Shown: positions 3,295 through 4,674 of the stretch, one piece after another | Position numbering within the stretch: the stretch's first letter is position 1 | Layout: every line of letters begins with the position of its first letter | Source: a virus | Lineage: Duplodnaviria; Heunggongvirae; Uroviricota; Caudoviricetes | IMG/VR virus record: IMGVR_UViG_641736116_000027 | Strand: one strand, 5' to 3' | Length of the DNA stretch: 36,109 bases | Program-made: the position numbers and the translations under genes | Notes under the pieces: generated by a model | What the model saw: only the letters and a program-made list of their open reading frames with translations | Told to the model about the DNA's origin: nothing | Databases searched by the model: none

Positions 3295-3377
3295 TGAAAC
3301 AGGTGAGTTGAGTTCAAACTGTATGAACCGCCCCGGAAATCCTGGAGACTAAACTCCCTGAGAAAGAGGTAAACAGG

Positions 3378-3704
3378 ATGACTAAAAATACTCGTTTTTC
3401 CCCCGAAGTCCGTCAGCGGGCGATTCGTATGGTTCTGGAAAGTCAGGATGAATATGACTCACAGTGGGCGGCAATTTGTTCCATTGCCCCAAAGATTGGC
3501 TGTACGCCGGAGACTCTGCGTGTCTGGGTTCGCCAGCATGAGCGGGATACCGGGGGCGGTGATGGTGGGCTCACCAGCGCTGAACGTCAGCGTCTGAAAG
3601 AGCTGGAACGTGAAAATCGTGAACTGCGCCGCAGTAACGATATCCTTCGCCAGGCTTCCGCTTATTTTGCGAAGGCGGAGTTCGACCGCCTCTGGAAAAA
3701 ATGA
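3378..3704 (+). CDS. IS3-family transposase OrfA (108 aa)
   Basis: [23 protein letters not shown]... with helix-turn-helix and leucine-zipper-like C-terminus. Ends in an A6 run (3696-3701) just before the stop, overlapping the orfB start. Confidence 0.9.
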
Positions 3705-4591
3705 TGCCACTGCTGGATAAGCTGCGTGAGCAGTACGGGGTCGGACCGGTATGCAGCGAACTGCATATTGCCCCGTCAACGTATTACCATTGTCAGCAAC
3801 AGCGACATCATCCGGATAAACGCAGTGCCCGTGCGCAGCACGACGACTGGCTGAAGAGAGAGATACAGCGCGTATACGATGAAAATCATCAGGTGTACGG
3901 TGTGCGTAAAGTCTGGCGTCAGTTGTTACGGGAAGGAATCAGGGTGGCCAGATGTACAGTGGCACGTCTCATGGCGGTTATGGGACTTGCCGGTGTTCTC
4001 CGGGGTAAAAAGGTCCGTACGACCATCAGCCGGAAAGCCGTTGCCGCAGGCGACCGCGTAAACCGTCAGTTCGTGGCAGAACGACCTGACCAGCTGTGGG
4101 TGGCTGATTTTACTTACGTCAGCACATGGCAGGGCTTCGTCTATGTGGCGTTTATCATTGATGTGTTTGCCGGATACATCGTGGGGTGGCGGGTCTCATC
4201 GTCTATGGAAACGACATTCGTGCTGGATGCGCTGGAGCAGGCGTTGTGGGCCCGTCGTCCGTCTGGCACCATCCATCACAGCGATAAAGGCTCTCAGTAT
4301 GTGTCACTGGCCTATACGGAGCGACTAAAAGAAGCCGGATTACTGGCATCAACAGGGAGTACAGGCGACTCGTATGACAACGCGATGGCTGAGAGCATCA
4401 ATGGTCTTTACAAAGCGGAGGTAATACACCGTAAGAGCTGGAAAAACCGTGCAGAAGTGGAACTGGCCACACTAACGTGGGTGGACTGGTATAACAATCG
4501 ACGATTGCTGGGAAGGCTGGGCCATACTCCTCCGGCAGAAGCAGAAAAAGCTTATTATGCTTCCATCGGAAACGATGATCTGGCAGCCTGA
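3701..4591 (+). CDS. IS3-family transposase OrfB, DDE catalytic domain (296 aa)
   Basis: In the -1 frame relative to orfA. Has an integrase-core-like DDE region (WVADFTYV...HSDKGSQY...[15 protein letters not shown]). Confidence 0.9.
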
Positions 4592-4674
4592 GTTCACAGA
4601 TAAAACACTCTCCAGGAAACCCGGGGCGGTTCAGTAGTACAATTCTCTCCAGTTTGAACAGGAAAGAATATGTT

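Follow-up and report, generated by a model that had tools for sequence, protein, structure and literature searches.

The question raised by this locus is what was interrupted when an insertion sequence (IS) entered the spacer between the genes ren and emrE of a lambdoid prophage, and what this means for emrE. The DNA analysed is IMG/VR virus record IMGVR_UViG_641736116_000027, of which the whole stretch of 36,109 nucleotides (nt) is referred to here as the window; it holds the left portion of a defective lambdoid prophage of the DLP12 type, which adjoins icd in Escherichia coli O157:H7. An earlier note on this DNA had described an IS3-family element that splits a 10-bp inverted repeat upstream of emrE, and had proposed that a potential RNA hairpin or operator was disrupted and that outward promoter activity from the IS could alter emrE expression. 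In the present analysis the insertion, a copy of IS629, very probably lies in the core promoter of emrE; it appears private to one strain and probably weakens native initiation. Positions of all features are collected in Table 1.

The emrE promoter and the insertion site

The position of the promoter was taken from Cappable-seq data for strain EDL933, in which a single gene-specific start, 1707125, was reported for emrE (EDL933_RS08820) in 8/8 conditions (PMC10469882, Table S5); the gene numbers and neighbouring starts of that table agree with the EDL933 RefSeq record, gene 8820 being EDL933_RS08820. The start was measured in EDL933, which is IS-free, and was placed on the window by sequence identity across the empty site. 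There it falls on the A of CCAGTTTGAAC; the hexamer TACAAT ends 8 nt upstream of it, and the ATG follows 24 nt downstream. As regards a sigma-70 promoter, the locus thus has both a mapped primary 5' end, by transfer, and a -10 hexamer within 5-9 nt upstream of the start. For K-12, no entry supporting an emrE start was found in the accessible part of the Cappable-seq supplement of PMC4782308.

The promoter was further assessed in an alignment of eight alleles or species, comprising two prophage alleles, the fliE-linked allele described below, E. whittamii, Escherichia sp. E1V33, E. ruysiae, E. albertii and Citrobacter murliniae. The -10, as TAGTACAAT or TAGTAGAAT, was kept in 8/8 alleles, with T-A-x-A-A-T invariant and TAGAAT present in two species. 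The GGTGAGTT block, which represents the -35 region, was kept in the six rows of E. coli and sister Escherichia, and E. albertii has GGTGAATT at this position. The candidate -35 itself, GTGAGT, matches the consensus at 3/6 positions and is below the scan threshold; the block surrounding it is largely conserved across Escherichia.

Since the inverted repeat coincides with this core promoter, the IS parts the -35 block from the -10. The right tip of the IS lies at -18 relative to the start mapped in EDL933, leaving TACAAT, the start, the ribosome-binding site and the gene intact, and the GGTGAGTT block is displaced by 1.3 kb with the G+C-rich IS end in its place. Native initiation of emrE is probably weakened.

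The element is a complete IS629/IS1203 copy. Its 1310 bp are 100% identical to many genome copies annotated as IS1203 family, which is equivalent to IS629, and also to the copy within ybcK of strain Balcarce_14.2. Its length falls within the 1.2-1.5 kb of the IS3 family, and its terminal repeats are imperfect and of the form TG...CA, being 88% complementary and reading TGAAC...GTTCA. Membership of the IS3 family is evident from the overlapping orfA and orfB, the -1 frameshift signal and an rve-type DDE transposase with an N-terminal helix-turn-helix. Transposition in this family is by copy-out/paste-in. A 71% likeness of the right subterminal region of the IS (4592-4615) to the right flank (4629-4652) came down to one shared 7-mer and was set aside as unremarkable.

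The target duplication is equally clear, as a single GTA is present in the empty site (100% identity, EDL933 and others) versus GTA on both sides here; duplications of 3-4 bp are known for IS629 (PMC3271280). When the IS and one GTA were removed by joining 2992-3323 to 4637-5010, the resulting 706-bp reconstruction was recovered from complete E. coli genomes as an unbroken match of 100% identity; many O157:H7 genomes have it, EDL933, EC4115 and TW14359 among them, the ancestral junction sequence being ...GTTCAAACTGTAGTACAATTCTCTCCAGTTTGAAC... The earlier note had named comparison with IS-free relatives as the test of its reconstruction, and the junction that it predicted is the one found. Its account of an IS3-family element with a 3-bp GTA duplication was likewise borne out by the IS629/IS1203 anatomy and the single GTA of the empty site, and its coordinates for the IS and the arms all hold, as do the flanking GTA copies and the location between the ren stop and the emrE ribosome-binding site.

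The left and right junctions of the insertion (junction k-mers GAGTTCAAACTGTATGAACCGCCCCGG and GGGGCGGTTCAGTAGTACAATTCTCTCC) were both looked for in 5426 complete E. coli genomes, and neither was found. Metagenome contigs were likewise free of the exact left-junction pattern, and viral contigs of the right-junction pattern, the junction queries covering same-orientation insertions. Genomes that seemed to match the first 25 kb of the window in full were considered as carriers of the same insertion and rejected, as those genomes hold the IS 3 kb away, inside ybcK. Judged by the genomes and contigs searched, the insertion at ren-emrE looks private to the source strain, and it is presumably recent.

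Over the stretch compared, the first 28 kb of the window equal O157:H7 strain Balcarce_14.2 except for the position of the IS and a 4-bp deletion (GCTT) in ybcK. The deletion lies at window 6315-6325 (open reading frames 5252-6379 and 6403-6774) and frameshifts the recombinase gene. It abuts GAAT, the four bases that IS629 duplicated on entering ybcK in sister O157:H7 genomes; the window is without that ybcK copy. The deletion looks like the scar of an imprecise IS excision, and would fit the excision class 'IS629 plus flanking 1-7 bp', which is promoted by the IS-excision enhancer (PMC9330008). EC4115, TW14359, SS52 and about 20 further genomes share this ybcK deletion, and all of them have an empty ren-emrE site. 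As the deletion is common to the EC4115/TW14359 group and the site is empty there, the source therefore appears to be an EC4115/TW14359-like strain with a private IS629 insertion.

The inverted repeat as hairpin, operator or target

The arms of the repeat, GTTCAAACTG and CAGTTTGAAC, are 100% complementary, and with the IS and one GTA removed they enclose a loop of 15 nt (TAGTACAATTCTCTC). On the promoter, this 'loop' comprises the -10 and the discriminator; the right arm takes in +1 and the earliest bases of the transcript. Because the emrE start is inside the right arm, the left arm is outside the emrE mRNA, and a hairpin is impossible in emrE's own mRNA. The disruption of an RNA hairpin, as suggested by the earlier note, was therefore not upheld, there being in addition no U tract, no terminator call and no conservation of the stem. 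As a terminator, the structure has 4 G-C pairs of 10 and a 15-nt loop followed by AGGAAAG, and the terminator scan made no call; as a conserved cis-regulatory hairpin, it has its left arm upstream of the start and two stem positions that are unpaired in 4-6 of the eight alleles. There was no Rfam family in the ren-emrE spacer.

A functional hairpin could alternatively act on transcripts arriving from ren, as a leader or as an equivalent of the tR2 terminator, and be abolished by the IS. The repeat does sit after ren, where other lambdoid prophages have tR2, and in a 40-nt context it folds at -13.4 kcal/mol with z = -3.5, compared with -15.7 for lambda tR2; in a 93-nt context, however, it is no better than shuffles (z = -0.2). 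With G-U pairs accepted, 83.8% of cells across the eight alleles are paired and four pairs are changed on both sides, which is above shuffled and slid controls. This pairing score was not regarded as evidence for a conserved helix, since two pairs are broken (the central pair in 6/8 alleles, another in 4/8) and the structure tested had itself been taken from an aligned sequence; a good many of the pairs scored are, moreover, G-U. Watson-Crick complementarity of the arms is 10/10 in the prophage allele only, and falls to 9/10 in the fliE-linked allele (a central A-A mismatch), to 7/10 in E. whittamii and E. ruysiae and to 5/10 in E. albertii. Further, there is no evident source of a read-through transcript, because the prophage is without immunity region and early promoter. 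Such a hairpin is thus very unlikely. The repeat is promoter DNA, and the insertion splits a promoter, not a leader structure; the promoter model, with the -10 TACAAT, a start 24 nt before the ATG and the conserved GGTGAGTT block upstream, explains which part of the 'hairpin' is under constraint.

The right-arm region was variable across the eight aligned alleles. By comparison with E. whittamii, E. ruysiae and E. albertii, three substitutions have arisen in the right arm (alignment columns 51-60), namely G to A, T to G and A to T, each of which turns a mismatch into a Watson-Crick pair with an unchanged left arm, from 7 to 9 to 10 of 10. These changes could reflect selection, or else quasi-palindrome correction by template switching.

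The same repeat could be read as a DNA operator, on which a dimeric regulator would bind both arms, bracketing the -10 box and the start, and repress emrE, so that the IS would remove one half-site and derepress the gene or deregulate it in another way. The arms have the placement usual for a repressor (Table 1), the left arm is invariant in E. coli and sister Escherichia, and the right arm has moved stepwise toward symmetry. However, the arm centres are 25 bp apart, or approximately 2.4 helical turns, an uncommon spacing for a dimer. The start is present in 8/8 conditions without any hint of regulation, and the right arm is variable whereas the left is constant. We know of no dedicated emrE regulator, and the literature on an emrE promoter or regulator yielded operon-level mentions only. 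An operator of this kind appears improbable. The broader proposal that the dyad is a functional element of either kind, an operator for some regulator or a preferred landing site of IS629, with its stepwise perfection due to selection, would be no more probable. Were the dyad functional, the IS would uncouple the strain's only emrE copy from control and change its tolerance to cationic biocides.

The position of the IS within a loop raises the separate possibility that the site was targeted. Loops of palindromic units are the insertion sites of the IS3-family elements IS1397 and ISKpn1, and IS629-type elements might similarly target hairpin loops, or else mimics of their own ends (GTTCA...TGAAC). 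The window IS lies in the loop of a perfect 10-bp repeat, for which approximately 0.1% of window positions qualify, and the arms hold the IS terminal pentamers. In addition, IS629 variants 95-96% identical to the window copy occur at lambda tR2 sites: a 96%-identical variant in the tR2 loop of CFT073 (GGT duplication) and another at the 5' foot of the tR2 hairpin in ECO2947 (GGCC duplication). Against these, 45 complete IS629 insertions were collected from viral contigs, 27 of them with duplications, of which a subset of 22 further independent insertions with duplications was tallied by hand. A stem of at least 6 bp was spanned in 2/22 (9%) versus 7.4% of controls, and 0/22 had GTTCA on the left or TGAAC on the right versus about 4% of controls. 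No IS629 target pattern was found by Rump et al. 2011 (PMC3271280), and the coincidence was noted after the fact. Both forms of the idea were accordingly rejected, hairpin-loop targeting as a general IS629 rule because stems at insertion points match controls apart from the window and CFT073 tR2, and end mimicry because none of the 22 sites shows it. Targeting is therefore a very doubtful explanation, and the hairpin location of the insertion is treated as a coincidence or at most a weak preference.

In the IS-free form of the window, five distinct inverted repeats are perfect over at least 10 bp and have a loop of at most 20 nt. With nested hits included in both counts, 6 were observed versus a mean of approximately 0.95 under a first-order Markov model, so that such repeats are not rare in this window. 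The four other perfect 10-11 bp short-loop repeats are at window 5499-5522, 7128-7156, 7162-7185 and 10914-10939; a neighbouring pair of these lies immediately upstream of ybcN (GTCACCGGAG...CTCCGGTGAC and CGCATTTAAG...CTTAAATGCG).

As a separate observation, the P-ren-tR2/ninB/emrE region of lambdoid prophages has been repeatedly struck by IS3-family elements. Further copies interrupt ninB (GTAC duplication), the 3'-terminal part of P (AAG duplication) and ren. The loci of these IS insertions are L003 3147-4456 (CFT073), L005 3140-4449 (ECO2947), L004 3247-4556, L208 1311-2620, L209 1311-2620 and L007 (K-12).

Possible consequences for emrE expression

That the IS affects emrE expression, as the earlier note had supposed, is plausible given an insertion between ren and emrE. 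The outward promoter that it had envisaged at the IS end was not upheld, the hexamers at -35 distance matching TTGACA poorly. In IS3-family fusion promoters, an outward -35 in the IS end lies 16-18 bp from a -10 in the flank (PMC9330008). Here the retained -10 starts 5 nt beyond the IS tip. With spacers of 16, 17 and 18 bp to this -10, the IS offers the hexamers GAAACC, GGAAAC and AGGAAA, with 2/6, 1/6 (by hand count) and 3/6 matches to TTGACA, respectively, and all without TTG. There is thus no adequate outward -35. A hybrid promoter at the IS tip was rejected on these grounds, with no usable -35, hexamers no better than the weak native -35 and a G+C-rich intervening sequence.

A second route to emrE expression would be transcription from within the IS. 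In EDL933, a primary sense start internal to an IS629 copy (2186393) lies just after the frameshift region and was present in 8/8 Cappable-seq conditions (PMC10469882). Its equivalent in the window, at 3798, reads toward emrE and has TACCAT 8 nt upstream; the assignment of start reads to one IS629 copy is uncertain because the IS copies are identical. On the plus strand between 3798 and emrE there is a single weak terminator-like site, at 4091-4106, and the 41 nt from the orfB stop to the IS tip are without a terminator on that strand. With this lone weak terminator-like site after the internal start, read-through into emrE is therefore plausible, and emrE may have become partly dependent on it.

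These observations could also be taken to mean that the IS activates emrE, either from a hybrid promoter formed at its right end or by read-through, as an adaptive change raising tolerance to quaternary ammonium compounds or ethidium. Such activation would draw on the co-orientation of the IS with emrE, on the internal primary start seen in all conditions, on the terminator-free end of the element and on precedents, namely IS1 and IS2 at acrEF and IS30 at mdfA, as cited in PMC9783932, and IS3-family fusion promoters (PMC9330008). Against it stand the missing outward -35 at the right distance from TACAAT and the finding of the insertion in no other searched genome or contig, so that there is no sign of spread or recurrence. 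IS3-family transposase transcripts are, moreover, generally of low abundance. A weak prediction that the read-through RNA may occlude the start codon, described below, also counts against it. Activation of this kind would be unlikely, although less so than the hairpin, operator or targeting explanations.

Several points nevertheless weigh against the preferred reading, that the insertion weakens native initiation by dividing the core promoter. The start comes from another strain, EDL933, which is identical across the empty site, and not from the IS-bearing strain, and a simple consensus scan calls no promoter in either allele, with or without the IS. The native -35 is also weak (3/6), and the IS supplies AGGAAA (3/6, 18-bp spacer) at about the right distance. 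Given this weak native -35 and a comparable hexamer at similar distance, sequence alone therefore gives no proof of lost promoter strength. There is also a complementarity between the gene and the element, as bases 2-7 of the emrE start ATGAACC (TGAACC; 4676-4681) equal the outer 6 nt of the left end of the IS and are the complement of its right tip GGTTCA (4628-4633). In the predicted fold of the read-through RNA, GGUUCA pairs with UGAACC and covers the start codon, a prediction that is not significant (z = -1.1).

As a guess, a reduction in net emrE expression would be the most likely outcome, at slightly better than even chances, with little change distinctly less likely and an increase a little less likely again. 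EmrE serves as a model among small multidrug transporters, and in most of the O157:H7 genomes listed the only emrE copy is that of the prophage. In a food-borne pathogen, an IS that rewires the promoter of the sole emrE copy could alter how well ethidium, methyl viologen or quaternary ammonium disinfectants are tolerated.

Prophage context and comparison with known systems

The gene order after ren is emrE, ybcK and then the late genes, and in this prophage the emrE cassette has replaced the tR2-nin region. In E. coli, emrE is found at two loci, beside ren in DLP12-type prophages and in the arrangement fliE-emrE-ybcL-ybcM in approximately 2400 genomes, at 94% identity. Comparison of the O111 fliE locus (L006 3990-4410) with window 3285-3323 and 4637-5007 indicated that the prophage and fliE-linked copies are homologous for only about 75 bp upstream of the ATG, a stretch with the GGTGAGTT block at one end and the ribosome-binding site at the other. 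The final codons of ren fall in the junction with the emrE cassette, and as the homology starts inside them, ren here has 100 and not 96 amino acids. The ren product had no Pfam match. At window 1747-1784, in the truncated O replication gene, there is a tandem pair of near-identical 19-nt palindromic units (TTTACCTGAAAGAGGTAAA / TTTACCTGAATCAGGTAAA), which are probably lambda-type origin iterons.

Table 1. Features of the window discussed in the text, in window coordinates
Feature	Position	Strand	Remarks
Integrase	1-1143	minus	followed by excisionase and truncated O gene
P	2294-2995		precedes ren
ren homologue, 100 amino acids	2992-3294 (stop 3292-3294)	+	from open reading frame list; 'protein ren' in EDL933 annotation
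GTGAGT, candidate -35	3303-3308	+	3/6 match; 16-bp spacer without the IS, -10 now 1.3 kb away
Left arm of inverted repeat, GTTCAAACTG	3312-3321		-26 to -17 of promoter; spacer, untranscribed in emrE mRNA
GTA target-site duplication, left copy	3321-3323		
IS629/IS1203 (IS3 family), complete, 1310 bp	3324-4633	+	co-oriented with emrE
Left terminal inverted repeat, 25 nt	3324-3348	+	
orfA	3378-3704	+	HTH_Tnp_1
ALIL pseudoknot RF01497, -1 frameshift stimulator	3659-3775	+	121.5 bits, E = 1.7e-32
orfB, -1 frame relative to orfA	3701-4591	+	HTH_21, rve DDE domain (rve E = 9.3e-28)
Equivalent of primary transcription start in EDL933 IS629 copy (2186393; L210 position 294)	3798	+	reads toward emrE
Right terminal inverted repeat, 25 nt	4609-4633	+	tip at -18 of emrE promoter
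GTA target-site duplication, right copy	4634-4636		-17 to -15 of emrE promoter
TACAAT, -10 hexamer (5/6)	4638-4643	+	ends 8 nt before start; inside repeat 'loop'
Right arm of inverted repeat, CAGTTTGAAC	4650-4659		-1 to +9
emrE transcription start (A)	4651	+	transferred from EDL933 position 1707125
AGGAAAG, likely ribosome-binding site	4660-4666	+	kept in seven Escherichia rows of alignment
emrE, 110 amino acids, small multidrug resistance family	4675-5007	+	PF00893 E = 2.1e-35; RefSeq annotation
Terminator-like hairpin and T run, downstream of emrE	5037-5072	+	

Among the closest known systems, the repeat can be set beside lambda tR2, with which it shares the place after ren and a similar hairpin stability; it differs in being without a U tract, in its unrelated sequence and in overlapping a promoter. 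The insertion recalls those of IS1397 and ISKpn1 as an IS3-family element in the loop of a palindrome, with the difference that no general hairpin-loop preference was seen in the 22 other IS629 insertions. With respect to position, a parallel is the IS3 copy of DLP12 in K-12 (renD/IS3), also an IS3-family element that is co-oriented with and upstream of emrE in the same prophage family. That element, however, lies inside ren (renD) with its transposase gene ending approximately 310 bp upstream of the emrE ATG, it has no nucleotide match to IS629, and the emrE promoter and inverted repeat are intact there.

Insertions at other efflux promoters (IS1 and IS2 at acrEF, IS30 at mdfA; cited in PMC9783932 and PMC9330008) resemble the present case in that the IS lies directly upstream of a drug-efflux gene and can replace upstream promoter DNA. 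They differ in having been drug-selected and in having a documented promoter or -35, whereas here the sequence of the IS end offers no usable outward -35. A further comparison is with the IS629 polymorphisms of O157:H7 (Rump et al. 2011, PMC3271280), with which the insertion shares the same element at 100% identity, a duplication of 3-4 bp, a prophage site and variability among strains, and from which it differs in that an insertion at the ren-emrE site is absent from the 5426 complete genomes and sister genomes have the IS in ybcK. The insertion is an ordinary strain-specific polymorphism of IS629 within a prophage of O157:H7, and its use would be at most that of a typing marker.

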